Made by a program: the position numbers and the translations under genes
Assembly: GCA_018711945.1 (NCBI GenBank)
Contig: DVHP01000100.1
Location: 1-40,263, forward strand
Length of the DNA: 40,263 bases
Source: Candidatus Ventrenecus avicola
GTDB taxonomy: Bacteria > Bacillota_I > Bacilli_A > RF39 > UBA660
Direction of reading: 5' to 3'
Shown: piece after piece, positions 7,138-22,567 of the stretch
Position numbering within the stretch: the stretch's first letter is position 1
Layout: every line of letters begins with the position of its first letter
Notes under the pieces: generated by a model
The model's input: only the letters and a program-made list of their open reading frames with translations
Told to the model about the DNA's origin: nothing
Databases searched by the model: none

Positions 7138-7174
7138 TTTTGTTTTTTCTTATAATGATTATGAGGTTTTGGAT

Positions 7175-9022
7175 ATGAAGTTTTGTTCTGAAATATTTTT
7201 TTCTAAGAAATTTGTGACATCAGAAGAATGGGAGGAGTTTATTCAAGCTATTTCTTTTTATAATGGTATTTTTCGAAAATGGAAGTTATGGGTGATGTTA
7301 GAGCAAAATCAACTAAGGTATTTTGTTCAAACCCGTCGTTTTTTACCAGTTACACTTCATTCTCTTAAAGCTTTTGTTTTAAAAAGTACTTCTATGTTTC
7401 CTTTAAAATATTATGAGCATACATGGATTGGTAAGTTAAAATCAGGTAATAATATTATTGATTTAATACAATCTTGTGAATCGTTTCATAAAGGAAAATT
7501 TTGTTATTTGGAATTTATTTTTCAAAAAATAAATCAAGGAAAAGTGTTTAGTAGTGCTTATTATTATTTAGAAAAACATCAATTGGTTCATCGCTATAAA
7601 ATTCTTTTTCGAGCTCCTGCTGATATTTTAGCTGTAGATTACACTAAAAATCCATTTTTCTGTTTAAAAGGAATTCCTAAGTATTTAGAAATGAAAGAGT
7701 CTTTGAATTTGCTACAAAATAGTAGTCAAAATGCTCTTATTAAAATAGATCCATTTCCTTATCGATCAAATAATTTATATTTTGGCCAGTCTTCTTTTTC
7801 ATTCGATAAGCATTCTTTGGTTTTGGGGTCTTCGGGATGTGGAAAATCTAAATTTATTAGTTTATATATCAAAAATATTTTAGAAAATTCTGAACTTTCT
7901 AGAAAATATAAATTTGTTGTGATTGATCCTCATGCGTCTTTAGAAAGAGATATTGGGGGGCTTGGAAGAACGATTGATTTTTTAAGTATTCAATCAAGTA
8001 TTCGTTTATTTACATCATATGGTGGAGATATTCTTGCTGATACAGAACTTATGTTAGATTTCATGCGTTCTTTGTTGACAGATCAGTTTTGTTCTAAATT
8101 AGAAAGAGTGTTAAGAAATGCTATTTATTTGCTTTTTAAAAATCAATCCTTTTGTTTTCAAAATTTAAAGAAGCTTCTTTTGGACTTAGAATATCGTAAT
8201 CAGTTGATACAACTGCAAAAAGCTGATTTACCAAGCAGTGTGTTAGATTTTTTTCTTACAGAGTTTCAGGAAATCAAGTCTCAATCTTATGGCGAAGCTA
8301 TTTCACCCATTATTGGTTTTTTGGATGAGCTTCTTTTAGTGCCGGCTTTTTCTTACGAAGGAAAACAAGATAGTTTAGAAGTTACAATAGAGAAAGAGTC
8401 ATTGACGTTGTTTTCTCTTAATCGAATGAAATTAGGAAGGCATGTAACTAAAACGATTGCAGGACTCATTATGAATCAATTATTTCAGTTGATTCAGCAA
8501 AAGTTTCTATCACAACACATTGTTTTTATTGTAGATGAAGTTTCTGTCATTGAAATGCCCGTTCTTTCTAAATTTTTGTCAGAGGCTCGTAAGTATGGTG
8601 TATCTTTAATTTTAGCTGGTCAATATTTTAATCAAATTTCTAAAGAATTAAAGGAATCTATTTTGGCAAATGTGGTAAATTATTATTTATTTCGGTTATC
8701 GCGTGTTGATGCGAATGAAATTGTTGATTCTTTAGGAATGAAAATACCTGTGGATGATTCTAGAGAAAAAAAGATCGAGATACTTACAGGACTTAAAAAT
8801 AGGGAATGTATCGTGAGGATAGAAGATCAAGGAAAGCTTATTTCTCCTTTTAAGGGGATTACTTTGGATTATACTAGTGTTCCTAGAAAAATGGAAAAAA
8901 TAGATCAACCTATTGTTTCTTTTCCTTCGTCTAAAAATTCTATTACAACATTTCAGATTGGGAAAACGGTATCTTTGCATGATATTTTAGTATCTAATTC
9001 TACAAGTAGAAAAGAGGTGTAG
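7175..9022 (+). CDS. HerA/FtsK-superfamily (DUF87-like) P-loop ATPase with an unassigned roughly 210-aa N-terminal domain
   Basis: Walker A LGSSGCGKSKF, Walker B IVFIVDEVS, and ARKYGVSLILAGQ. Start moved to the ATG at 7175 (GAGG 8 nt upstream) rather than the TTG at 7169. Confidence 0.8.
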   Translation: MKFCSEIFFSKKFVTSEEWEEFIQAISFYNGIFRKWKLWVMLEQNQLRYFVQTRRFLPVTLHSLKAFVLKSTSMFPLKYYEHTWIGKLKSGNNIIDLIQSCESFHKGKFCYLEFIFQKINQGKVFSSAYYYLEKHQLVHRYKILFRAPADILAVDYTKNPFFCLKGIPKYLEMKESLNLLQNSSQNALIKIDPFPYRSNNLYFGQSSFSFDKHSLVLGSSGCGKSKFISLYIKNILENSELSRKYKFVVIDPHASLERDIGGLGRTIDFLSIQSSIRLFTSYGGDILADTELMLDFMRSLLTDQFCSKLERVLRNAIYLLFKNQSFCFQNLKKLLLDLEYRNQLIQLQKADLPSSVLDFFLTEFQEIKSQSYGEAISPIIGFLDELLLVPAFSYEGKQDSLEVTIEKESLTLFSLNRMKLGRHVTKTIAGLIMNQLFQLIQQKFLSQHIVFIVDEVSVIEMPVLSKFLSEARKYGVSLILAGQYFNQISKELKESILANVVNYYLFRLSRVDANEIVDSLGMKIPVDDSREKKIEILTGLKNRECIVRIEDQGKLISPFKGITLDYTSVPRKMEKIDQPIVSFPSSKNSITTFQIGKTVSLHDILVSNSTSRKEV

Positions 9023-9871: not shown

Positions 9872-10795
9872 GTGAAGATAAGTATGAAGGAGTTGAGTTT
9901 TAGTTTTTTAGAAGAAGCTTTGGTTCAAAGTTATTCTAAAGATCTTTGTTATTCTAAAGTTGGAAGTTTATGGAAAAGAGAAAATCCATATATAGGAATG
10001 TGTGCGATTACGGCTTTGATTGTTCAAGATTACTTTGGAGGAGATATTGCTAAAATTAAAGTGGATGGTATTAGTCATTATTTTAATTTTATTCAAGATC
10101 AAGTTGTAGATTTTACTGTTAAGCAATTTTCAAAAGTAATTTTTTATCATGACTATAGAATTGTAGATAGAAAGGATATTTTAACAGAAGATACTAGAAA
10201 ACGTTATGAATTATTAAAGAAGAAAGTTGTAACTTTTTTATTACAGAATGTTGATAAAAGTGTTTATAAGTGTGCTTTGTGTCATGGATTGGTAGAAAAA
10301 TTTCCTAATACAAATACTGTGTTTTTAGGTAGTAATAATGATATTGTGTTAGTAGGGGAAGCTCCGGCTAATAACGGTTGGCGTAAGAGTCATTTGTTGT
10401 GGCGTGATGAGTCAGGGAAAATGCTTCTTAGTGGGGTAGTATTGCAGAAGCTTTTTGATATTATTGATAAAAATATTTTGGAAACGACTTTTTTGGAGGC
10501 TGTGAAATGTTATCCTTTGGATAGAAAACATTTGAAAGTTTGTTCCCTTCATTGTAAACAATTTATGATGGCTCAGTTAGAGATTTTAAATCCTAAACTT
10601 ATTATTACTTTGGGAGAATTTCCTACTAGAACTTTGCTAGATGTTCCGTTTCAAAGGTTTTCTTCTGTTGTTGGGAATGTCTATGAGATAGGGAAGTATC
10701 GAGTGTTACCAATTTATCATCCTAGTCCTATTTCTCCAAAAAGTTATAAAGGGAATGAGCCTATTTTTGAAAAAATAAAGAATGAATTATTATGA
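9872..10795 (+). CDS. fusion of a YunG-like N-terminal domain with a UDG-superfamily (family 4-like) glycosylase domain
   Basis: C-terminal half has LVGEAPANNGW (motif A), EAVKCYP and PIYHPSPISP (motif B). N-terminal half has WKRENPYIGMCAITALIVQDYFGGDI...HYFN. The start could instead be the ATG at 9884. Confidence 0.8.
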   Translation: MKISMKELSFSFLEEALVQSYSKDLCYSKVGSLWKRENPYIGMCAITALIVQDYFGGDIAKIKVDGISHYFNFIQDQVVDFTVKQFSKVIFYHDYRIVDRKDILTEDTRKRYELLKKKVVTFLLQNVDKSVYKCALCHGLVEKFPNTNTVFLGSNNDIVLVGEAPANNGWRKSHLLWRDESGKMLLSGVVLQKLFDIIDKNILETTFLEAVKCYPLDRKHLKVCSLHCKQFMMAQLEILNPKLIITLGEFPTRTLLDVPFQRFSSVVGNVYEIGKYRVLPIYHPSPISPKSYKGNEPIFEKIKNELL

Positions 10796-11352: not shown

Positions 11353-12482
11353 TTAATAGTAATTGTTAGTATTTTCTTTGGTTGTTTTGTCTATTATGAT
11401 TAATGGAATATAGATTTCGTCTTTTGTATAACCTGCATGAAGTGAATAGAGTTCTGCGTCGCCATCTGTTAGTATGGCTTTATTTGTCTTGGCAATTGAT
11501 AGATAATCTCCCAAAGCATTTTTGAAGAGAGGATTTTCTATCCCGTCACCAAATAGTTTACTGCTTATTACTTCTTCTTTAGAATATAGGTCAAAGTCGT
11601 TTTTAAATGTTTCTTTAAATTTTTTTTCAAATTCTTTTTGCAACTCTTTTTTGACTTTGAAAGATGTCGCGCGTGGTTCGATAGAAGTAGTTCTTTCTAG
11701 CATATTTAGTAGTTCTGGGTAGTCTTTTAAATAAAGGTTTTCTGTTTTAATGTGTCCATGGTCGGCAACAATAAAAATTATAGTATCATCTAGTTTTTTG
11801 GAAAGTTCTTCTATTTTGTTGTTTCTTGTTTTTATGAGTTCTTTGGCTTCTTTACTATCAGGCCCTAGGTCATGCATTGTGTGATCTGGTTCTTCATCAT
11901 ACGCATAAATGTATTTTTTCCTTCTTTTTGGCATTTCTTTTCAATGATGGAAATCATCTCATCTAAGTCTTTGTATTTTGTATCTTTAAATGGAAATAAA
12001 GATATAGCATGGTATTTGTTTTGTTCATTTATTTCATCAACAATTGTTTTAGGACTTAAATACTTTTTTTGTACTTTAGGATATTTTGTACTAGTTTTTC
12101 CTGTTTCTTTATTTATGCTTGTGTATAATTCTACGGTTTCATCAATGGGACTTACATACATATTCCAACCAAGATAACCATGTTCTATAGGATTTAGTCC
12201 TGTTTGCATAGAGGTTGTCGCTGCGGTTGTTGTAGCTGGAAATACTGTAGTTATTTCTTAGTATTTGTGTTTTATTAAAAAGTCATCTTTTGATAAAGTG
12301 CGTTCTAATATTCTGGAACCCATACCATCAAATAGTATGACCACTACATTTTTTGGCTGTTTTTCTTCTAATAATTTATCTATGTAATCTAGTGTATCGT
12401 GTTTATAGTCTAATTCAAAATATTTTCTTATGGAACACGCTAAATTTGTTAGGCATTCGTTATAATTATTTTTTACTAACAT
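11353..12482 (-). pseudogene. alkaline-phosphatase-superfamily (nucleotide pyrophosphatase/phosphodiesterase-like) gene with an in-frame TAA and a frameshift
   Basis: Three track ORFs form one gene. ...DFLIKHKY*EITTVFPATTTAATTSMQTGLNPIEHGYLGW has an in-frame TAA at 12258-12260. ...KCQKEGK/KYIYAYDEEPDHTMHDLGP needs a frame change in the T6 run at 11914-11919. The metal-site motif VADHGH is present. Confidence 0.8.
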
Positions 12483-12828
12483 ACTCTTTCCTTTCTAGTT
12501 CTACTCTGATTCCTAATACTCCATATTTTTCTTGTTTTTCTGTTGGATAAAATTGCTCTAATTCTTTTTTTAATGTTTCTTTTGTGATGCTTTTATCTGC
12601 TAAAATAGAAATATCAAAATCTTGAAATAATTCTTCAAAGTTTTCATATCTTAATAATCCGATAATTTTAGCTTGAAAGCTTTCTTTTAAATCTGGTTCT
12701 TTTAAAAAGGTAATTGTTTCTCCGAGATTTAGGTTTTTTCTTTTTTCGTCATATACTCTAATTTCTATTCTTTTTGTACCATGTAACATGTAGTTATAAT
12801 AATTTGGTTGTAATTTCATAGTCGTCAT
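12466..12828 (-). CDS. ASCH (PUA-like) domain protein
   Basis: MKLQPNYYNYMLHGTKRIEIRVYDEKRKNLNLGETITF is a typical ASCH N-terminus. The gene overlaps the downstream pseudogene start by 17 nt. Confidence 0.75.
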   Translation of the reverse strand: MTTMKLQPNYYNYMLHGTKRIEIRVYDEKRKNLNLGETITFLKEPDLKESFQAKIIGLLRYENFEELFQDFDISILADKSITKETLKKELEQFYPTEKQEKYGVLGIRVELERKEYVSKK

Positions 12829-12842
12829 TTTTTTCCTTCTTT

Positions 12843-13733
12843 CTATTTTATTTTTTTTCTTTCACAATGTTTGTAATATTCTTCTACAGTGATATTTGAT
12901 TTTGGTTTTTTATATTCATATAAACATAAGTTGTTTTTGTTATAGTTGTTTTTTAATTCATCAAGAATAAATTTTTCTTTTACATCTAATAGTAGTTCTT
13001 CTAATGATGAGTATTCATGTATTCCTTTCCATTTCTCCCATGCATGTTCAAACCAGTAGTATTTGTTGTCTTTTTGATAGGTTAGAAATGTATGGGTTGG
13101 ACATTTGTCGTTATCATAATGGACGATGAAATAAGTTTTTATATTTTGATATCCTTTAAAATAGTATCTTTCTAATTCTACTTGATCCCAACATGCTCCA
13201 ATTTTATTTTCTATAATTTCTTTTGGAGATTGTAATCTGTATTTTTTAGAGAATGTTTCATCAATTGTTAAGTGTTTCTTTTTTTCGTCATCTACCCATC
13301 CATATTCTATTTGTTCTAAAAACGTCATAATTTCTTTTTCGGTATAGTAGTTCCATATACTGAGTGAGCCTGTTGCTTTTATAGGAAGTATTGGGGTAAT
13401 ATTATCTAATATCCATGCATATCGTCCTTCCCTGTAATCCCCACAGATGTATTCTTGATGATTCTTTTCCTTCATATTCTCTACATATTCTTTTGTCATA
13501 TAAATACAATCTACTAGGTTACATTTGCAGATAATGTTTCCAAAATTTAAAGGAGTGTTTTCTATTAAAGTAAAAAGTTCGGTATTGTCTTTCCAATTTT
13601 TTGGCATTTTTGTGGAGCTTGCATGGATATAAAGCTCTCCTCGGTAATCCGTTTTCCAACTTCTGGTTTCAATCCACTTTTTCTTTTCTTTAATTAACGT
13701 TGCATATGGCTCTGTGAGACTTAGTACTTTCAT
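12843..13733 (-). CDS. ASCH domain fused to a transglutaminase/papain-like Cys-His domain
   Basis: N-terminus MKVLSLTEPYATLIKEKKKWIETRSWKTDYRGELYIHAS is paralogous to 20714-21124. The C-terminus has IGACWDQVELERYYF...PTHTFLTY...YWFEHAW. Confidence 0.7.
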   Translation of the reverse strand: MKVLSLTEPYATLIKEKKKWIETRSWKTDYRGELYIHASSTKMPKNWKDNTELFTLIENTPLNFGNIICKCNLVDCIYMTKEYVENMKEKNHQEYICGDYREGRYAWILDNITPILPIKATGSLSIWNYYTEKEIMTFLEQIEYGWVDDEKKKHLTIDETFSKKYRLQSPKEIIENKIGACWDQVELERYYFKGYQNIKTYFIVHYDNDKCPTHTFLTYQKDNKYYWFEHAWEKWKGIHEYSSLEELLLDVKEKFILDELKNNYNKNNLCLYEYKKPKSNITVEEYYKHCERKKIK

Positions 13734-13785: not shown

Positions 13786-14505
13786 TTACCAGTTATGTGA
13801 GGAATAAATGACTTCGTTTGTTTTTTGGTTGATGGCTCCTAGTAAAAATATTCCATGATTGCAGTAGCCTGAATTGTCACATTCTCCATCGATAAGATAA
13901 ATTATAAAGTCGTTAATATTTGAGGTTGTTAAGGAATTAAATATATTTTGGTCTAGTAGTCCATTATTTTCGGTATATTCGTTTAGAGTACCTATCCAGA
14001 TTGCTTTTTCTTTTAAAGTGCTTTCTAAATCTTTTAAATGTGTTGCTTGGTAGTAGAGTTCTATTATGGATGCTCCTTGTAAAAAGCCTGGGTTATACTC
14101 AAATTTTATATTCGTGGCATCTTCTGGTATTTCTTTTGGAAAAACTTCTAAAAGGTAGTCGTCTGAAACATAGTGAGAATAGTATTTTGGATTTGTTATT
14201 GGATGTGTTGCTGTAAGACCAGCCGTGATAAAAATGGCGAAGAAAAGATAAAAGGGTAGAGCAAGCGTTAGTAAAACGTTTAGTATGAATGTTATGTCTT
14301 TGATATATTGTTTATGATCTAGTTTATATCTTAGTATTGTTACTAGTAAAAATAGTAGACAGGGAAAGATTCCTATGAAAATGATTAATAAGCGTAAGTA
14401 CCAAGGAATTCCTATTCCGGTGCATAAAAACGGAATGCTTATCATAAAGCATAAGATTGTTAGGATGAAGGAGTATTTACTTTTTAAAAACAATTTCTTT
14501 AGCAT
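13786..14505 (-). CDS. membrane protein (3-4 TM) with a C-terminal extracytoplasmic domain
   Basis: Hydrophobic N-terminal 110 aa. No enzyme motif recognised. Confidence 0.65.
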   Translation of the reverse strand: MLKKLFLKSKYSFILTILCFMISIPFLCTGIGIPWYLRLLIIFIGIFPCLLFLLVTILRYKLDHKQYIKDITFILNVLLTLALPFYLFFAIFITAGLTATHPITNPKYYSHYVSDDYLLEVFPKEIPEDATNIKFEYNPGFLQGASIIELYYQATHLKDLESTLKEKAIWIGTLNEYTENNGLLDQNIFNSLTTSNINDFIIYLIDGECDNSGYCNHGIFLLGAINQKTNEVIYSSHNW

Positions 14506-14602
14506 GATAACCTCTTTTATATTTTTATTATATCATGGTTTTGGAAGTTACAGTTGCTTTCTTTTTGTTTTCTCGTTACAATAGATGTCAAACGGAGGCA
14601 TT

Positions 14603-15025
14603 ATGAAATATAAGAAGTTGATTTTTGACTTAGATGGGACATTAGTTAGTGATAGAGAGTCCATGAAATATGCTTTTTGTTGCGTATTAAAAGAATTAGG
14701 AATTGCACCTTCTATGGATTTGGCTTTGGAATGGTTAAAGTTTGATGATGCTTATTGGCATGAAATTGAAAGCGGAAGAACCGTATTTCCAGAATATGTG
14801 CAAACAAAGGAAGATAGAAGAGTTTATGCTCAGGCGATGAGATTTGTTTTATTTTTTGAAAGTTTTCCTATATCTTTTGAACAAGCCATTCATTTCAATG
14901 ATGTTTATTGTGAAAATTTAGGAATGAATATTGTACCGATTTTAGGAGCAGAAGAGTTACTTTGTTTTTTAACAGAAAACTATGAAATTTATATTGCAAC
15001 AAATGGCCCTAGAAGGTCAGCTTAA
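14603..15025 (+). pseudogene. HAD-superfamily hydrolase, C-terminally truncated
   Basis: Motif I is LIFDLDGTLVSD and motif II region is YIATNGP. The ORF then stops, and HAD motifs III/IV are absent from all frames downstream. GGAGG precedes the ATG at 14603. Confidence 0.6.
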
Positions 15026-15047
15026 AAAAAATAGAGAGGTTGTGTTT

Positions 15048-15992
15048 ATGAATTCTTTTGTATATCGTTTTTACATGCGAGATGAAATGATTCCAAAAAC
15101 GGTTATTTTTGCTTCGGCATTTGGTTTGGTGATTGACTCTTTTAAAACAGCGAATGAACAAGGGAATTTCCCTTATCGTATTCGTTTTTATCATGGGAAT
15201 AATATTGTTGGATATATGGATTGTCAATGCGATGATTTTTCATATTTTAATGTAGGCAAAAAATATCCCTTTGTTTTATTTACGCCGGTTGGGAATATTA
15301 CTGGGTATTATTCTAGTTATAGTCACGAAAACTCTTTTATTTATCAATTAGATCTTTACCACCCAGAAGAAGTGGATATCGTTAGTGGCCATTTTCATAT
15401 TGCTCGCAAGAAATCGTTAGCTTTTTTTGAAGATGAAGAAGTTAATTATTCTATTGGTACATATGCTAATGCATTTAAAAATGGAGAAAGAGTAGTTGAT
15501 TTGTCTACTAATTACTGTGTTAGTCAACAAGCACTTTCTATAAGAGATTATCGTAGCTCTGAAGAAATTACATATGGATATTATGGGAATTTTTATATTT
15601 ATCATAGGAAGATAGAAAATCGTGAAGAGAAAATTTTATCAAAGATAGCAATCTCTAACCAAAGATATCCTGATTGTGATGGCTCATTTACTTTTGTTGA
15701 TACTAATAAAGGGTATTCTATTCACAATATGCGTGATAAGAAAGGAAATATTTTATTTGACGTTATTCATGCGGAAATTAAGAAACATGATCCTTGTTTT
15801 TTTGAAACTTTGAATCGTGTAAGAGATGCTGTTACTTTTCCTGTTTATGGTGGAAATATTTCTTTATATGATCGTTTTATTCATTTATCTTTTGAAAATA
15901 ATGAGGAACTTTTTTCTATTTTCCAGGATTGTGAAGTAAAAGCATTGAAAAAAGAAAATCTGCTTGTTCGTAAGTATCAAAATAAGAAATAA
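15048..15992 (+). CDS. hypothetical protein (314 aa)
   Basis: Track ORF 14982-15992 trimmed to the ATG at 15048, 8 nt after GAGAGG. No motif recognised. Confidence 0.65.
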   Translation: MNSFVYRFYMRDEMIPKTVIFASAFGLVIDSFKTANEQGNFPYRIRFYHGNNIVGYMDCQCDDFSYFNVGKKYPFVLFTPVGNITGYYSSYSHENSFIYQLDLYHPEEVDIVSGHFHIARKKSLAFFEDEEVNYSIGTYANAFKNGERVVDLSTNYCVSQQALSIRDYRSSEEITYGYYGNFYIYHRKIENREEKILSKIAISNQRYPDCDGSFTFVDTNKGYSIHNMRDKKGNILFDVIHAEIKKHDPCFFETLNRVRDAVTFPVYGGNISLYDRFIHLSFENNEELFSIFQDCEVKALKKENLLVRKYQNKK

Positions 15993-16003
15993 ATTATTTA
16001 TAC

Positions 16004-16030
16004 ATAAAAAAAGAAAACTTATAGGTTTTC
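16004..16030 (-). terminator. intrinsic terminator at the end of the pnkp-glycosylase operon
   Basis: On the minus strand gaaaac-ctataa-gttttc is followed by T7. The hairpin includes the stop codon. Confidence 0.6.
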
Positions 16031-16738
16031 CCAAATTCTTTGGTATTGTTTTAGTTGTATTTCTCCTTTTATTTGAGCAGTTGGATGGTATAGTGGAATG
16101 ATGATAACATTTTGTAAAGCTATTATTGGAGGAGTTTCTATTGTTTTGGATAAGTTTTTTTCTATTTTAAAATGATAAATTTCTGATAATGATAAAAGAG
16201 GGTAGTAACCTAGTGTTATAATGATTTTCGGATTTACTATTTCTATTTGTTTTTTTAAAAAACAAGAACAATTTTTTGTTGATTTGTTTAAATCAATATT
16301 GTTGCCACGATAAGTTGTACCGGTTCTTGCACACATAATTGCGTTGGTGATGAATAGAGAATTTAATATAGTTTCATCTATTTTTATATTGTAAGCCTTA
16401 GCAGAAAGAATTAGATATTTTGTTAGCATCTTTTTGGTTAAGCTAGGTTCAGTGTCTATTAAATTTTGCCAGTGTTTTTCTGTGGGATTTTTTTGATATT
16501 CCGTGTGTAATTTTTGCATGTCTATATATGGGCCCCAATCTTGCCCAATGACAAAAATTTTTGCATCTAGTCTGTGAAACCAATCGGTCCACATAGAGGG
16601 AATAGCTTGGCAAAACTCTTGGCTTTTGTAAATGTTTATTAAAGAGCAATCCGTGCCATTTTTCTTTTTTAAAGACAGACATTTTTGACAGGAAGATAAC
16701 TCTTTTAGCAAATGTTTAAATTTTTCTTCTTTGCTCAT
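16019..16738 (-). CDS. UDG-superfamily DNA glycosylase-like protein
   Basis: FVIGQDWGPY (motif A-like), FITNAIMCAR and PLYHPTAQ (motif B-like). The ATG at 16738 overlaps the upstream TGA (ATGA at 16735-16738), and AGGAGAG lies upstream. Confidence 0.75.
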   Translation of the reverse strand: MSKEEKFKHLLKELSSCQKCLSLKKKNGTDCSLINIYKSQEFCQAIPSMWTDWFHRLDAKIFVIGQDWGPYIDMQKLHTEYQKNPTEKHWQNLIDTEPSLTKKMLTKYLILSAKAYNIKIDETILNSLFITNAIMCARTGTTYRGNNIDLNKSTKNCSCFLKKQIEIVNPKIIITLGYYPLLSLSEIYHFKIEKNLSKTIETPPIIALQNVIIIPLYHPTAQIKGEIQLKQYQRIWENL

Positions 16739-18414
16739 ATTCTCTCCTTTTTTTTGCAATTTTTTCGCAGTGGACATGTGGCACATTTCTTTTTTCCACA
16801 AAAACTATTTCCGACTTCCCATAAGTATTTGTCAACTTCACTAGGTGTTAGATTTAATTGCTTTCCTGCTTTTATCCATGTGGAAGATAACTCGTGCAAT
16901 TTCTTTTTTGTGGGCTTATTTGTATCAATGATATTATTTAAATAACTAATTTCAATATCATGCCGGTCTAATGGGATAAAACTCATTTCATTATCTGAAA
17001 TTTTACATACTTTGGAGTCTATAATAACTCTGATTAAAAGTCCTCCTGTTTTTTGACCAAAACAATGGAATGATTGAATGAAAAAGTAGAGTTCTTCAAA
17101 CGAATTTAAAGTACTTATTTTATATATTAAGCTGTCAAACTTCGATAATTCTTCGGATAACTTTATCCACTTTTTGGTGGCAATATTTGGATAACGTGGA
17201 TGAATGTTTTGACATAGTAGTATTTTTAAATTATTTTCTTTTTTTTGAAAATTTTTTACAACATAATTTGGTTGGAATAGTTCTGGATGATGTAAGTATG
17301 CTTGTATCATATTTTTATGATAAGTTTCCGAACGCATTCCATAATTTAAAAGACAAGAAAAAAACATATAGGTAATCCATTCATTTGTTTTTGGAAGTAT
17401 TGTATTAGGATAACCTACATTAGCTATTTTTTGTGAGTAATTTATAAAATAGTTCTGCAATGTTTTTAAGCATAATACTGCTTTTTTATAATTTGAGACT
17501 GTGTTCATATTAAAATACGTTCTTTGTAAATCGTTGATGACTCCATTAATTAAATTTAAATCTGATGGAATAATCCAATTTACATTAGCTAATTTAAATA
17601 ACACTAAAGGAATGATAGCCCCACTTCTTGCACCATCCATCCATTTTGGATTTCCAGGCATTAATTTGTATAACTCCTCTAAAGAAATATCGTAGAATAC
17701 TTTTTCTGTTCCTTTTATATAGTCTTCTAAACTTAGCATGTATTTATGTATGTTATCGTGAAATAATGTGTTTTCTATTAAGTTAAATCCTGTTAGTAAT
17801 TCGAAACGTTCTTCGCCACCTGTAAATATTGCACAGTCATAATCGGTATCTAAGTTTAAAGAGGCACATTTTTCTTTAATGAAGTTTTCCATTTCTTCTA
17901 TAGTATTGCCACTGTAGGGATTGTTTACTTTGTCAAAATTATTTAGTAAGTCTGCAACTCCAAGCTTTAAGTTTTTGGTATCGGTAATTTTATTTTGATA
18001 AAATGTTACTAATTCTGTTGTTTTCCCACCCATATTAATAATTAATACTTTTTTTCCATTGTAATCGTTATCCATTGCTTTTCCTAAATAGTAGTTTTCA
18101 ATACCGTGAGAAATAATATTAAAATGTAAGTCAAATTTATCATTAAATAGTTTTACTAGTTCTTGTTTTTTGGAAAGAGTAAGTTCTCTAAATATTCCAG
18201 TTACATAGATATGAGTATTTTCGTATTTTAAATTGTACGTTTCTTTTAAATGTGTAAAGTAATCACATAATTCTTGCAAGTTTTCTTCACTGATGCCTTT
18301 TTCTTTGTCAAAATTATTTTTAAAATAAATAGAATGTTCTTCTAATAATGTTAGTTCTTTGTCGTATTCATAAACTTTAATTGTTGATGAACCTAAATCA
18401 ATATAGTATTCCAT
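16735..18414 (-). CDS. fusion of a Ppx/GppA-like ASKHA phosphohydrolase domain with an EndoIII-like HhH-GPD glycosylase domain carrying a Cys cluster
   Basis: N-terminus: YYIDLGSSTIKVY, IYVTGIFRE, LIINMGGKTTELV. C-terminus: HCFGQKTGGLLIRV (HhH with Lys), IPLDRHDIEIS (catalytic Asp position), FCGKKKCATCPLRKNC (C-x4-C-x2-C-x5-C). ATG at 18414 lies 8 nt after GGAG. Confidence 0.7.
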   Translation of the reverse strand: MEYYIDLGSSTIKVYEYDKELTLLEEHSIYFKNNFDKEKGISEENLQELCDYFTHLKETYNLKYENTHIYVTGIFRELTLSKKQELVKLFNDKFDLHFNIISHGIENYYLGKAMDNDYNGKKVLIINMGGKTTELVTFYQNKITDTKNLKLGVADLLNNFDKVNNPYSGNTIEEMENFIKEKCASLNLDTDYDCAIFTGGEERFELLTGFNLIENTLFHDNIHKYMLSLEDYIKGTEKVFYDISLEELYKLMPGNPKWMDGARSGAIIPLVLFKLANVNWIIPSDLNLINGVINDLQRTYFNMNTVSNYKKAVLCLKTLQNYFINYSQKIANVGYPNTILPKTNEWITYMFFSCLLNYGMRSETYHKNMIQAYLHHPELFQPNYVVKNFQKKENNLKILLCQNIHPRYPNIATKKWIKLSEELSKFDSLIYKISTLNSFEELYFFIQSFHCFGQKTGGLLIRVIIDSKVCKISDNEMSFIPLDRHDIEISYLNNIIDTNKPTKKKLHELSSTWIKAGKQLNLTPSEVDKYLWEVGNSFCGKKKCATCPLRKNCKKKERI

Positions 18415-18460
18415 AATAATCACTCCTAGTATTGTAACGCATTTCTATTTTTTTGAATAG

Positions 18461-20644
18461 TTATTTTTTTATTTGCTCTTTTAGAAAGTTTTTTCTTACT
18501 TCGATGATGTTTATGTTTGTAATGTCTGTGTCTTTGTTTTGATATGTTTCTTTTAAGTAAGTCATGAAGTTTTTTTCTAAAGCGTTTTCGTCTTTGATTT
18601 TAAATTTATTTGTTGTTAAAGCAGTTTCCATTTTTGCTCTTAGATATTTCCATGTGTCATAGTAATGTGTTTTTGTTTTTAACATAGTAAAGTTACTATC
18701 TTCTATTACAAAGCCTTCTATGTTGTTGTTTTTCCATTGATAATTTTCTTGAGTAGTTTCTTTTAAAATATCTTCTAATTCTTCATATGTTTTTGCTATG
18801 TAAGCTAATTCTTTTATTTTGATATTATTTTCTGTAGCAAACTTTTGTAGTTCTTCGTAAGGTAACTTGGAAAAATCTGGTGTATTGTGAATAAAATCTA
18901 GTAATATGATGTCTGGTTCTTGATATTCAATAATGTGTGGGTCGTTTAAAGGGTCTATGACTTCAAATACCGCGGTTAGATTTTCTTTTGCTAGTTTTTG
19001 TTTCAGTTTCTTTATCTTTGTTGGTGTTAATTTGTTATAAAATATAGTTTTAAAGTATTCTATATAATTTCCTGTATTTACCTTTTTTGAAGCAAAGAAA
19101 AATTCGTCATTCCAAACAGATAGAATTCCTAAGAAACCATTGTATTTTAAGTAGAAATGAGCAGGGAATATCATACTTTTTTTAAGGTTTTCTAATTTTG
19201 TTTCAGGACGTTCTTCAATTTTAAAGAATTTGTTATAGCTACGGGCTACGATGTGATATTTTGCAGTGTCAATAAATAAGCCTCTTGCTTGGGTGGTTAT
19301 GTTGTTCCATATTTTATTATAAAAGGCCTCTTTTGAAAAATTAAATGATGAAAGATTTTTTTCTAGTTCTTTTTCAAAAATATATTTGTTTTTTCTTAAG
19401 TCTTCTACTAAATTATATGTTGCTGTTTCTGTGATTAAATTTGGATTATAGTTATTATTTTTTATTTCTGTGTATTTTTGACTATCATTTTTTGTCAATG
19501 TTAAAACACGTAGATGACCACCATGTTCGATGTCCCCTTCGAGGTTTATAGAATAAATATATGTGTTGTATGGTAACTTTAAGTGGTTTCTATGACCATG
19601 AATTTGGTAAGTTTTTTCTTTTTGGCTCTTCATATATTCGTTATAAATTTTATCGATGTCAACATCATATTTGTCTATCCCGTATATGAATGTGTTGGTG
19701 CTATAAAAGTCTAGAGGTTTTTCTGGGATATAGGGAATTCCGCCATGAGTAATGAGATAATTTTTCCCATTAAAAGTAATGTAAGCAAGTTGGGATAGTT
19801 TTTTGATAAAACCACGTATTTCACTTTTTTTGAGTTTTTTTTGTTCAAATTCTTCAATTGTATTTTTGATATCATAATCCATTTTAAATTCATCATCACA
19901 GGCGTATTTGTATAATTTATCTTCATGATTTCCAACAAGAAATATCATATTTTTGTGTTCCATCAATTCTTTTAAATACTTAAAAGTATGGTAATTTTCG
20001 ATACCACGGTCAAAGTAATCTCCTACGAAAATGTAGAAATCTTGAGGTATTACTGGATATTTATTGAAGTACGTTTTTAAGGCAGTGTAAGAGCCATGAA
20101 TATCGCCTATAATATGAATGTTTTCATAGTTATTTAAATCTCTAGGAGTGGTTTTTGTGATAGTTTCGAAATCTTCTGGTTTAATGATGCGAAAAGAAGA
20201 GGGGATTTTTTCTTTTTTGAAAGCGGTGTATACTCTTTCGATACTTGAAGGTGGAACAATCCGAAAATCTTCTCTTTGTAAATTTCTTTTTAATACTTCT
20301 TCTTTTGGAATATCTGTAAAATCTAAGACATAGGTGTGGTAACGATATTTTTCAGCGAGCTTTTTGTATACTTTAAAAGACTCATCGACATAAGCATGAA
20401 CTGCATCGATGATCGTGAATTCTCCTTTTTTCATTCTTTCTTCTAATAACTGATATAGCAAATCCCAAACTTTTTTGTTATTATATTGTGGAATTGTTTC
20501 AGTGTAGTTAATTGTTAATTCTGGTGATGAAAACATCAGTCTTATCGTATCGGAACTTAGTGTAAATCTTTCTAGGTGATGTTCTTTAATAAAAGTGGTT
20601 TTTCCACATCCCATGGCTCCTCTTAAAATAATTAGTTTTCGCAT
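18461..20644 (-). CDS. pnkp: polynucleotide kinase-phosphatase-ligase (bacterial Pnkp architecture)
   Basis: Kinase P-loop LRGAMGCGKTTF. Metallophosphoesterase GDIHG, GDYFDRG, GNHE, THGG, HGHRN. Ligase-like KYNG (motif I), FEVIDP, EGFVIED, MLKTKT. ATG at 20644. Confidence 0.85.
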   Translation of the reverse strand: MRKLIILRGAMGCGKTTFIKEHHLERFTLSSDTIRLMFSSPELTINYTETIPQYNNKKVWDLLYQLLEERMKKGEFTIIDAVHAYVDESFKVYKKLAEKYRYHTYVLDFTDIPKEEVLKRNLQREDFRIVPPSSIERVYTAFKKEKIPSSFRIIKPEDFETITKTTPRDLNNYENIHIIGDIHGSYTALKTYFNKYPVIPQDFYIFVGDYFDRGIENYHTFKYLKELMEHKNMIFLVGNHEDKLYKYACDDEFKMDYDIKNTIEEFEQKKLKKSEIRGFIKKLSQLAYITFNGKNYLITHGGIPYIPEKPLDFYSTNTFIYGIDKYDVDIDKIYNEYMKSQKEKTYQIHGHRNHLKLPYNTYIYSINLEGDIEHGGHLRVLTLTKNDSQKYTEIKNNNYNPNLITETATYNLVEDLRKNKYIFEKELEKNLSSFNFSKEAFYNKIWNNITTQARGLFIDTAKYHIVARSYNKFFKIEERPETKLENLKKSMIFPAHFYLKYNGFLGILSVWNDEFFFASKKVNTGNYIEYFKTIFYNKLTPTKIKKLKQKLAKENLTAVFEVIDPLNDPHIIEYQEPDIILLDFIHNTPDFSKLPYEELQKFATENNIKIKELAYIAKTYEELEDILKETTQENYQWKNNNIEGFVIEDSNFTMLKTKTHYYDTWKYLRAKMETALTTNKFKIKDENALEKNFMTYLKETYQNKDTDITNINIIEVRKNFLKEQIKK

Positions 20645-20675
20645 AGCAATCACTTCCGTTTCATTGGATTTATTG

Positions 20676-20712
20676 TAACGAAAAAATGAAGAACCCTCAA
20701 GTGTTTCTTCAT
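20676..20712 (-). terminator. hairpin plus T-run between the ASCH gene and pnkp (terminator or attenuator)
   Basis: atgaagaa (20686-20693) pairs with ttcttcat (20705-20712). On the minus strand it is followed by TTTTTTCGTT. Confidence 0.5.
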
Positions 20713-20713
20713 T

Positions 20714-21124
20714 TTATAAAGATGTTTTTATTTTAATCTTGTCATTATAGTTCCATAATCCTAATTGGCCATTGATGTAGATAAGCTCGATGGTCTGGAT
20801 ATTTTCTAATTTAAATCCATAATAATTATTTTCTTTATTATTTATTTGATTTTCATAAACGATAGACTTTTTCTTTTTTAGCATAGTTTTTGCTTCTTCG
20901 TTTATTTTTATGCAATCTGTTAAGTCTGCGATACCTAGAATGCAACCGGTAGGATATTCTAAATGAAATTGTTCATATTTTTTTGTGGCGTTTTTGTCTA
21001 TTCCTTTACCTGCATGAATTAGTATTGGGCCACGATAGTTTGTCTTCCATGTGCGAAATTCATATTCTTTTAATCCTGCGATGATTAAAGAGGCAAAGGG
21101 TTGCTTGATTGTTATTACTTTCAT
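20714..21124 (-). CDS. ASCH (PUA-like) domain protein
   Basis: MKVITIKQPFASLIIAGLKEYEFRTWKTNYRGPILIHAG is an ASCH N-terminus. Confidence 0.75.
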   Translation of the reverse strand: MKVITIKQPFASLIIAGLKEYEFRTWKTNYRGPILIHAGKGIDKNATKKYEQFHLEYPTGCILGIADLTDCIKINEEAKTMLKKKKSIVYENQINNKENNYYGFKLENIQTIELIYINGQLGLWNYNDKIKIKTSL

Positions 21125-21235
21125 AGTATCACTTTCTTTTATATTTTGCTTTATTTTTCATTGATTTGTTAATTACATCTTTAATCCTTATTATCTTCCT
21201 TTTATTGGTTTTACTATTTATAGTATTAATATAAA

Positions 21236-21317
21236 AGCAATCCACCTAACTCAGCAATGATTTAGGTGGAACCAATTCGGCAACACTCAACATGCGAAAA
21301 TTAAGTGTTCCTTTTTT
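21236..21317 (+). ncRNA. candidate small RNA (or the two-hairpin 3' UTR of the minus-strand ccdA-like gene)
   Basis: TTGGTT-16 nt-TAATAT (21205-21232). Then hairpin ccacctaa/ttaggtgg (21242-21269). Then aacactcaa/ttaagtgtt (21282-21309) followed by T6. There is no plus-strand ORF nearby. Confidence 0.25.
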
Positions 21318-21376
21318 ATTTTATTCAAGGTGTCCTTGATATATTCATAGTATCATAAGATGTGCTTTTTTTCAAG

Positions 21377-22567
21377 TTATTCTTCTGTGTATTCTTTGAT
21401 ATAGTTTTCTAAATCTTCGTGGCTTACTGCACCTGGTATTTTTATTTTTACTTCGTTGTTATCAATAATAAATGTATTTGGGAATGATGATATTCCATAT
21501 TTTTTGAAGTATTCTTTAGACTCGTCAATTAATACAGGGAAACTGTAGTTATTTTCTTCAATATACTTTTTAATTTCTTCGGTGCTTGAGTTACTTAATT
21601 CAGGACTTATTAAAGTGAGTAAAATAACATCGTCTTGATAGGTATTATATATTTTTTCGATATCTTTTAATTCTTCTTTACAAATTGTACAAGACATAGA
21701 CCAGAAATTTAAGATGACTGTTTTGTCTTTGTAATCTTCTAAAGTATAAGTGTTACCAAAAATATCTTTTAAGGTAAAAGCGGGTGGAGTTGTAAGATTG
21801 ACTGACTCAATGGTTGAAGAACAATTTGACATTCCGTTTTCATCAATTGTACAACTAGAAATTTCTTTTTCAGGGATAGCTTTTATTCCATTATATATTA
21901 GTATTCCACCAATGATTATTAATAAAGCACCGCCTACTTTGATTAAGTTAGATAGAGCTTTTTGATGTTTTTTTAATAAGTTTAGAGCTTCATTTGTAAA
22001 TAATCCAAGAATTAGAAAAGGAATGATAAACCCTAATGCGTACAAGAAGACATATAAGTTACCGATTATCATACTTTCAACGCTTCCAGCCATCATAAGA
22101 ACAGATGAGAGGGCAGGACCAACGCATGGTGTCCATGCAAAACTAAATAAAAATCCTAATAGAAAAGCAAAGAATGGGTTTATTTTTTTGATGTTTAAGT
22201 TTACATTCATTTTTCTTTCTTTTTGTAAGAATTTTATTTTAATGAGCCCCATTTGAAAAAATCCTAAAATGATGATAATGATACCACATATGATTAATAA
22301 GATATGTTTGATATTTTGAAAGAATAGTCCTAATGCAGTAAAAGATAATCCTAGAATAAAGAAAGATGCAGATATTCCAAGGATAAAGAAAAATGTATGA
22401 AAGAGAGTAGTGCTTCTTTTATAGTATATAGTGCCATCTTTGTTTACCTTTTTTGCACTTCCTGCTAAATAACTCATATATAAAGGTAGGATTGGGATAA
22501 TGCATGGTGAAAAAAATGAAATAATTCCTTCTAAAAATACTGTAATAAATTGAAAACTTTCTAACAT
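21377..22567 (-). CDS. CcdA/DsbD-type membrane domain fused to a TlpA/ResA-like thioredoxin domain
   Basis: Six or more TM helices with FFSPCIIPILPLY and TPCVGP, plus a C-terminal WSMSCTICKEE (CxxC). GGAGG RBS. Confidence 0.85.
   Translation of the reverse strand: MLESFQFITVFLEGIISFFSPCIIPILPLYMSYLAGSAKKVNKDGTIYYKRSTTLFHTFFFILGISASFFILGLSFTALGLFFQNIKHILLIICGIIIIILGFFQMGLIKIKFLQKERKMNVNLNIKKINPFFAFLLGFLFSFAWTPCVGPALSSVLMMAGSVESMIIGNLYVFLYALGFIIPFLILGLFTNEALNLLKKHQKALSNLIKVGGALLIIIGGILIYNGIKAIPEKEISSCTIDENGMSNCSSTIESVNLTTPPAFTLKDIFGNTYTLEDYKDKTVILNFWSMSCTICKEELKDIEKIYNTYQDDVILLTLISPELSNSSTEEIKKYIEENNYSFPVLIDESKEYFKKYGISSFPNTFIIDNNEVKIKIPGAVSHEDLENYIKEYTEE

Follow-up and report, generated by a model that had tools for sequence, protein, structure and literature searches.

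We analyzed a 40,263-nucleotide (nt) contig of Candidatus Ventrenecus avicola (GenBank DVHP01000100.1), referred to below as the window. On its minus strand, one unbroken open reading frame (ORF) of 559 amino acids (aa) runs from an ATG at 18414 to a stop codon at 16735 and joins a Ppx/GppA-like module to a module resembling HhH-GPD-fold DNA glycosylases, whose family we call X. We found that this fusion is a real, segregating stop-loss polymorphism within one species. The ORF listing gives 16735..18423 (-) with a GTG start and 562 aa, but an AGGAG Shine-Dalgarno sequence lies 8 nt 5' of ATG 18414, which makes this ATG the likelier start. The ORF thus stands as given in a preliminary description of the locus, and all the motifs quoted there are present: DLGSSTIK (aa 6 to 13), TGIFRE (aa 72 to 77), and NMGGKTTEL (aa 127 to 135) in the N half and FGQKTGG (aa 452 to 458), PLDRHD (aa 481 to 486), and C539-x4-C544-x2-C547-x5-C553 in the C half. 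Since it extends over 559 codons at a local G+C content of 29% and both halves have many homologues (lowest E values, 1e-154 and 1e-83 for the N and C halves, respectively), the ORF is not a chance one. The features discussed below are listed in Table 1.

Table 1. Modules and motifs of the fused ORF, and genes around it
Feature	Position	Strand	Basis
Ppx/GppA-like ASKHA module, aa 1-296	17527..18414	-	Pfam, TIGRFAM, PDB sequence search, AlphaFold and Foldseek
Phosphate-2 motif NMGGKTTEL	18010..18036	-	HMMER alignments and family alignment
Joint codon CAA (Gln297), a former stop; TAA in sibling strains	17524..17526	-	Plus-strand 17526 G>A; Logan contigs
Five-codon linker RTYFN, former intergenic spacer, without Shine-Dalgarno sequence	17509..17523	-	Sequence
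HhH-GPD-fold 4-Cys glycosylase-like module (X family), aa 303-559 and stop	16735..17508	-	Homologue search, AlphaFold, Foldseek
HhH motif FGQKTGGLLIR, candidate Schiff-base Lys455	17029..17061	-	Alignments with EndoIII and MjOgg
IPLDRHDIE, candidate catalytic Asp483	16951..16977	-	P, D, R, H, D, and E invariant; alignments with EndoIII and MjOgg
C539-x4-C544-x2-C547-x5-C553, predicted [4Fe-4S] cluster loop	16756..16800	-	Alignment and hhalign
UDG-superfamily (family-4-like) gene	16019..16738	-	Pfam UDG, E 3.5e-10; PDB family-4 UDG 4zbx, E 9e-5
730-aa kinase, metallophosphatase, and Rnl1-type RNA ligase	18461..20653	-	AAA_33, calcineurin-like phosphoesterase, PF09511 E 4e-43
ASCH gene	20714..21124	-	

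We looked for other proteins containing both halves. A word-indexed search of 5.8 billion clusters returned none, the best matches covering about 53% of the query and the maximum being 66%. An exhaustive HMMER search of 1.84 billion representatives gave 373 matches, and none of the best 150 spans both halves; these cover either residues 1 to about 300 or residues about 307 to 558. A two-domain relative would outscore single-domain matches and would therefore stand among the best 150 listed. The domain-architecture check proposed in the preliminary description thus found the same fusion nowhere else across both protein databases, and no described Ppx-glycosylase fusion was found in the literature. 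The Ppx-X fusion is not a conserved architecture. In nearly all of its relatives, the X module stands alone as a protein of about 250 aa. Elsewhere, it is fused to a UDG-like module (P0022, at locus L003, 501 aa) or to an HD-like domain (P0030), and the Ppx, X, and UDG-like modules are found in several fusion states across loci (Ppx-X here and X-UDG in P0022).

We then examined the joint between the two modules, which reads ...gat tta CAA aga acg tat ttt aat ATG aac... The nearest relatives of the N half (67 to 78% identity, about 314 aa) end with ...LINGVINDLK*, and the Met that follows RTYFN is the start of standalone X proteins. Translation of the 17526 G>A variant changes CAA into TAA (Q297 to stop), and the TAA allele consists of two genes, with the ATG of X located 15 nt after the Ppx stop. 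To survey this position, we used Logan contigs from public metagenome runs, mostly of chicken gut. In run X9, a contig of 683 nt (17194-17876) covers both genes and shows five differences from the window, including 17526 G>A (TAA), and runs X2 and X3 contain a 229-nt contig that crosses the joint, also with TAA. The fused allele was recovered as well: a 378-nt contig of run X5 (17242-17619) crosses the joint with CAA, its only differences from the window being two synonymous ones at 17407 and 17422, and a 751-nt contig of run X1, which ends at 17528, has CAA and no mismatch to the window. In many other runs, near-identical Ppx alleles also have TAA as the joint codon and lead into another downstream gene; this alternative sequence diverges from 17522 and has a ribosome-binding site, GGGGGA, and then ATG AAT AAA.

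Since contigs from different samples span the joint, Ppx and X are truly adjacent in several samples. The CAA codon occurs on two haplotypes (the window/X1 type and that of X5) and in at least two studies, which shows that the fused allele is genuine and not a base-calling error or a chimeric join. TAA is the ancestral state of the joint codon. The preliminary description had considered that the ORF might be two genes joined by a sequencing error; two genes are indeed joined, but by a genuine single-nucleotide polymorphism present in independent runs. Its view of a protein designed for two activities is not supported, as no other protein contains the two halves and sibling strains have TAA at the joint. 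The case is a caution for the mining of domain architectures, where a striking two-activity protein may be a one-base stop-loss allele that exists beside a two-gene allele, and it offers a clean example from nature of the first step of a gene fusion.

The same contigs revealed a second difference near the other end of the gene. In most other runs (X2, X5, X6, X9, X12, and X14), a 3-base insertion, TAG on the plus strand, follows position 18426; the window carries the allele without TAG, and the site is just 5' of the region with the Shine-Dalgarno sequence and start codon of Ppx.

A more durable finding than the fusion is the family to which the C half belongs, an uncharacterized HhH-GPD/4-Cys family with its own base-excision island. 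We obtained 387 homologues of the X module at E ≤ 1e-3. The 120 that were listed have 246 to 275 aa, are unnamed or hypothetical, and come mostly from metagenome-assembled genomes (MAGs) of gut Bacilli; Pfam detected no domain in them except AGOG (PF09171) on two. A scan of genomes for the family yielded 78 loci, including one in a Micrarchaeota MAG and one in a Thorarchaeota MAG. The X family is sizeable, with at least 387 members, mostly from animal-gut Bacilli and a few from archaea, and has no Pfam or NCBI name. For the C half of the window protein, Pfam gave no match and NCBIfam only a marginal MutY match over the Cys region. Among 32 X members, weak matches to PF09171 and PF22175 were found in 12 and 3, respectively, and weak EndIII_4Fe-2S (PF10576) and MutY Fe-S region matches fall at the Cys cluster of X.

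An AlphaFold model of the C half (predicted local distance difference test [pLDDT] score, 88.9; predicted template modeling [TM] score, 0.83) was compared with the PDB using Foldseek. The best 36 matches are all HhH-GPD proteins, with TM scores of up to 0.61 (query) and 0.72 (target), in agreement with the EndoIII-like glycosylase seen there earlier. The matches include MjOgg, EndoIII of D. radiodurans and B. stearothermophilus, MutY/MUTYH, and TM1821, as well as AGOG, Mag1/Mag2/MagIII, and QNG1. An alignment of 32 X members showed several invariant motifs (FYSCLLDYGMRS, HPRYP, GQKTGGLL-R, IP-DRHD-E, DKYLW, and C-x4-C-x2-CPL-x4-C); within the cluster, three Cys are invariant, and the fourth is kept in at least 90% of the members. 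With E. coli Nth, hhalign gave an E value of 0.088, weak when taken alone, and paired GQKTGG with GVGRKTAN (K120), IPLDRHD with IAVDTHI (D138), and the four Cys with C187, C194, C197, and C203; the first Cys spacing contains a 2-residue gap. This reproduces the alignment made by eye in the preliminary description, which had matched the Lys, the Asp, and C-x4-C against C-x6-C. When the X-family profile was searched against the PDB, MjOgg was matched with an E value of 0.037, its Lys (GIGYKEA) and Asp (IDRHI) being aligned with those of X. Sequence and model together make X an HhH-GPD protein whose catalytic and cluster residues resemble those of EndoIII but which lies outside every curated family.

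Two known groups come closest to the X module. It has the fold of EndoIII (Nth) and MutY (1orn, TM 0.61/0.72; 4unf; MutY entries), and its HhH Lys, Asp, and four Cys align with those of E. coli Nth. Unlike EndoIII (C-x6-C-x2-C-x5-C), it has a first Cys spacing of 4 instead of 6, some 10 additional residues between the Lys and the Asp (one of them a nearly invariant Cys), and an extra N-terminal region that holds the invariant FYSCLLDYGMRS motif. Its best match in sequence and structure is the Ogg2/AGOG group (MjOgg 3fhf/3knt, TM1821, and Pa-AGOG; Foldseek rank 1), with the catalytic Lys and Asp aligned at an identity of only about 16%; unlike X, these enzymes have no Cys cluster. No C-x4-C HhH-GPD family was found described in the literature. 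One variant of the module was observed in a single Bacilli MAG (P0024, L055 10001-11755), where it is without three of the four cluster Cys and is fused to a multipass membrane region and a C-terminal domain. This C-terminal domain is 37% identical to a 239-aa membrane ORF of the window (13786-14505, minus strand), which ends with ...GYCNHG...

The N half had been assigned to Ppx/GppA, and our searches confirm it. PF02541 (Ppx-GppA) matched at 29.5 bits, above its curated Pfam gathering score of 27 (aa 34 to 296 of the 562-aa GTG-start translation, i.e., about 31 to 293 in ATG numbering), and TIGR03706 matched over its whole length (E 1.7e-12), at 47 bits versus an equivalog cut-off of 307. 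The only sequence matches in the PDB are H. pylori GppA (E 1.8e-4) and Aquifex Ppx/GppA. An AlphaFold model built on 22 relatives had a pLDDT score of 94.3, and its best 38 Foldseek matches in the PDB are all Ppx/GppA proteins (E 1.5e-19 to 2e-11), with NTPDases coming next. The relatives are standalone proteins of about 300 to 317 aa. The N half has the two-domain ASKHA fold of the Ppx/GppA family (A. aeolicus 1t6c and H. pylori 6pc0, short two-domain forms; TM 0.66 to 0.76) and shares with it the phosphate-1 motif DxGSxxxK, the Glu after the third strand, and the Glu of GG..TE. It differs at the phosphate-2 position, where the Asp is invariably replaced by Asn, and in having no HD or C-terminal domain.

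In the alignment of 22 Ppx-like members, the invariant residues are D6, G8, S9, K13, T72, G73, R76, E106, N127, G129, G130, E134, and G199-G200-E201. HMMER alignments pair N127 with the Asp of DIGGGSTE/DQGGGSTE in 6pc0 and 2j4r and E134 with the Glu altered by the mutation in 6pc1, and Asn127 occupies the position of the metal-binding phosphate-2 Asp of Ppx/GppA enzymes. The complete set of Ppx/GppA catalytic and metal-binding residues is therefore not present: D6, E106, and E134 are kept, and the phosphate-2 Asp is replaced by the Asn. Since Asn127 is invariant and the TIGR03706 score is distant, we consider these proteins a distinct Ppx/GppA subfamily, for which a polyphosphate or pppGpp substrate should not be assumed and whose chemistry may differ from that of exopolyphosphatases. 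As judged from alignments and the model, the module is probably best described as a divergent ASKHA phosphohydrolase-type enzyme. This Asn-variant subfamily, with its repeated fusions to nucleotide-handling domains, is the second durable finding of our analysis. The fusion proteins present in the family alignment (P0019, P0020, P0027-P0029, P0059, and P0062) include C-terminal fusions to a nucleoside 2-deoxyribosyltransferase-like domain (PF05014) in candidate phyla radiation (CPR) bacteria and DPANN archaea, N-terminal fusions to NUDIX or peptide deformylase (PF01327), and one fusion to DUF362.

We then looked into the genes around the fused ORF and around other X genes. Four genes lie head to tail on the minus strand of the window: ASCH, the kinase-phosphatase-ligase gene, the fused ORF, and the UDG-like gene. 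The ATG of the last overlaps the TGA of the fused ORF (ATGA, 16735-16738), and its Shine-Dalgarno sequence, AAGGAGA, lies inside the upstream coding sequence. A scan of 15800-21500 gave no terminators and fewer promoter-like sites than shuffled sequence. Within 10 kb of X, in the 78 genome loci, we found a UDG-like gene in 18 cases (often as the immediate neighbor), an ASCH gene in 11, a family of 260-aa proteins (H260) in 13, and a Ppx-like gene in 6. The last occurs in both orders, with L058 having X and then Ppx. The L063 locus, where the set is fullest, has the order Ppx, H260, EEP nuclease, NUDIX, X, ASCH, UDG-like, and methyltransferase, and its ASCH gene, beside X, directly precedes and overlaps the UDG-like gene. 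The content of the set differs between genomes, and the genes found with X (UDG-like, ASCH, H260, EEP nuclease, and NUDIX) form a variable base-excision gene island. The nearest standalone Ppx genes do not have a conserved neighborhood, the neighbors in L001 and L002 being unrelated.

H260 has no annotation or Pfam match and is encoded at L063 5478-6260 (plus strand) and in 12 other loci (e.g., L010, L012, L025, L042, L044, and L067), in many genomes directly beside X and in L063 directly after the Ppx-like gene. A weak hhalign match to X (E 7e-4, 184 columns), in which DTH is aligned to DRH, suggests that it may be a second divergent HhH-GPD protein. The 730-aa protein encoded 46 nt upstream of the fused ORF has a P-loop polynucleotide-kinase-like domain and resembles a single-chain "heal and seal" RNA repair enzyme; its likeness to bacterial Pnkp (TIGR04075) is confined to the first 306 residues. 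An RNA-repair operon, with a glycosylase acting on RNA, was rejected, as an RNA ligase gene is near X in none of the 78 loci. The window contains three ASCH genes (12466-12828, 12843-13733, and 20714-21124, all on the minus strand), one of them with a transglutaminase-like C-terminal part, and a second UDG-superfamily gene, which is fused to a YunG domain (9872-10795, plus strand). Three ASCH and two UDG-superfamily genes make an unusual local cluster of modules that read or excise bases. Housekeeping genes flank the region (Tex, asparagine synthase, and a DsbD/thioredoxin-like thiol-disulfide protein). A phage origin was rejected after a megablast search of 16000-21200 against phage genomes gave no match. 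PADLOC gave no match for the fused ORF or the UDG-like protein and nothing significant in the cluster, with only marginal hits for two of the three ASCH proteins and the Pnkp-type ligase protein (E 8e-4 to 7e-3).

Taken as a whole, these results are probably best explained by a recent, strain-level translational fusion of two adjacent and normally separate genes, whose modules act as their standalone homologues do. A T-to-C change would have turned the stop codon of the Ppx/GppA-family gene from TAA into CAA, and ribosomes would then read through the 15-nt former spacer, translated as RTYFN, into the ATG of X. In the TAA allele, X translation is probably coupled to that of Ppx, since no Shine-Dalgarno sequence precedes the X ATG and this start lies 15 nt past the stop (12 nt between the two codons). 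The CAA allele probably yields both modules in one chain, tethered by a short flexible linker. In the AlphaFold models, the C-terminal helix of Ppx ends at residue 296 and the first helix of X begins about 7 residues into X, so about a dozen unstructured residues would join the modules, which is compatible with their independent folding. Assuming that the fused protein is stable and active, each module probably acts as its standalone homologue, and no new combined activity is needed.

We propose that X is a [4Fe-4S] DNA glycosylase with apurinic/apyrimidinic (AP)-lyase activity that functions in base-excision repair, a prediction drawn from its conserved residues and gene context. The cluster would be bound through C539, C544, C547, and C553, the HhH hairpin would engage DNA with the damaged base flipped out, and D483 and K455 would drive base excision and beta-lyase chemistry, as in EndoIII, Ogg2, and AGOG. 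X would work alongside the translationally coupled UDG-like gene downstream. The substrate is most likely an oxidized or otherwise altered base. Since the best matches are 8-oxoguanine enzymes and the partners include MutT-like NUDIX, Xth-like EEP, and UDG-like proteins, our first guess is an oxidized or deaminated base; the substrate of the family could be an oxidized base or a phage-type modified base.

Several observations weigh against this explanation. The evidence from the runs consists of low-depth Logan contigs (2.4 to 27x) and not of raw reads, and several contigs from mixed samples end within a few bases of the joint (17522-17528), which we tentatively attribute to branching of the assembly graph at 17527-17577, a segment common to many Ppx alleles. 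Concerning X, PF00730 (HhH-GPD) is absent from the window protein and from all of the 32 members, the links to known glycosylases in sequence are weak (E 0.03 to 0.09), and the E values of the Foldseek matches are only about 1e-3 to 1e-2 (2.5e-3 at best), though the top matches are unanimous in fold. Finally, the proximity of Ppx and X in 6 loci leaves room for some functional link.

Among the alternatives, an anti-phage system composed of the X, UDG-like, and ASCH genes fares best, and we still consider it unlikely. Hypermodified phage bases would be excised by the glycosylases and the modification stripped or read by ASCH, as in Brig3-BapA, an operon that provides defense against T-even phages and encodes a UDG-superfamily glycosylase active on 5-hydroxymethylcytosine (Brig3) and an ASCH-fold hydrolase acting as a deglucosylase (BapA) (PMC13160076). 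The pairing of UDG and ASCH matches this design: both gene types also share the cluster of X in the window, with its three ASCH and two UDG-superfamily genes, and in L063, where the two overlap beside X, and island content varies between genomes. The likeness is one of gene type and concerns the neighbors rather than the fused ORF, and, unlike Brig3-BapA, the genes studied here have no defense-island context, with no significant PADLOC match and housekeeping flanks. Moreover, the EEP nuclease and NUDIX partners fit classical base-excision repair and the GO system.

It is improbable, in our estimate, that the fused ORF is an integrated bifunctional enzyme, whose Ppx half would sense or hydrolyze a nucleotide or trim a 5'-triphosphate and so control or feed the glycosylase. 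Ppx-like and X genes neighbor each other in either order (window and L058) and share one island in L063, the Ppx-like family is independently fused to PF05014 and NUDIX, nucleotide-handling domains, and also to PF01327, and X translation probably depends on Ppx in the TAA allele. However, the fusion occurs in no other sequence searched and is polymorphic within one species, 72 of the 78 X loci have no Ppx-like gene within 10 kb, and the nearest standalone Ppx genes are in unrelated contexts. We found nothing in support of the earlier suggestion of a Ppx half that serves the glycosylase as a (p)ppGpp sensor or that processes 5'-triphosphate ends. We give the same low weight to a related idea, that the Asn-variant Ppx-like family is a dedicated partner of base-removing enzymes in an undescribed two-step sanitation or salvage route, with the fusion under selection. 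The independent joining of Ppx-like modules to PF05014, X, and NUDIX could mark a coupling of phosphate removal to base excision. If so, phosphate would be taken from a nucleotide (perhaps a modified one) or from a nucleic acid with a 5'-phosphorylated end in a step coupled to base excision, and the polymorphic fusion would be a case of selection caught welding two steps.

We regard as very doubtful that the C half is a nucleotide or nucleoside N-glycosidase (QNG1/DUF2419-like) that functions in salvage with the Ppx-like phosphatase. QNG1 structures are matched by Foldseek with TM scores of 0.58 to 0.61, fusions of Ppx-like proteins with nucleoside deoxyribosyltransferase-like N-glycosidase domains occur in CPR and DPANN organisms, and a preprint reports that the ASCH-domain protein EOLA1 deacetylates free N4-acetylcytidine in nucleotide salvage. 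Yet QNG1 ranks below about 27 DNA-glycosylase matches, with an E value of 0.3, X keeps the DNA-binding HhH hairpin, the lyase Lys, and the EndoIII-like Cys cluster loop, and its partners include an AP-endonuclease-type EEP nuclease. Least probable of all is a sequencing or assembly artefact, either a miscalled stop base or a chimera formed where the 3' end of Ppx is conserved. A single base separates the joint codon from a stop, many mixed-strain metagenome contigs break at 17522-17528, and the shared 17527-17577 segment is repeat-like with depth peaks of up to 244x, but contigs from different studies span the joint (X5 with CAA; X9 and X2/X3 with TAA), and CAA is found on a second haplotype, that of X5, which differs at 17407 and 17422.

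Farther from the fused ORF, the window contains other ORFs of interest. About 8 kb from the cluster, an ORF at 7169-9022 (plus strand) has weak matches to HerA/TraG/TrwB/VirD4-type coupling-protein ATPases and might indicate a mobile-element origin for part of the region. Also on the plus strand, a 146-aa ORF (14585-15025) matches the N-terminal part of HAD hydrolases only and overlaps the start of a 336-aa ORF without a family match (14982-15992); together, the two may represent a truncated or frameshifted HAD gene.

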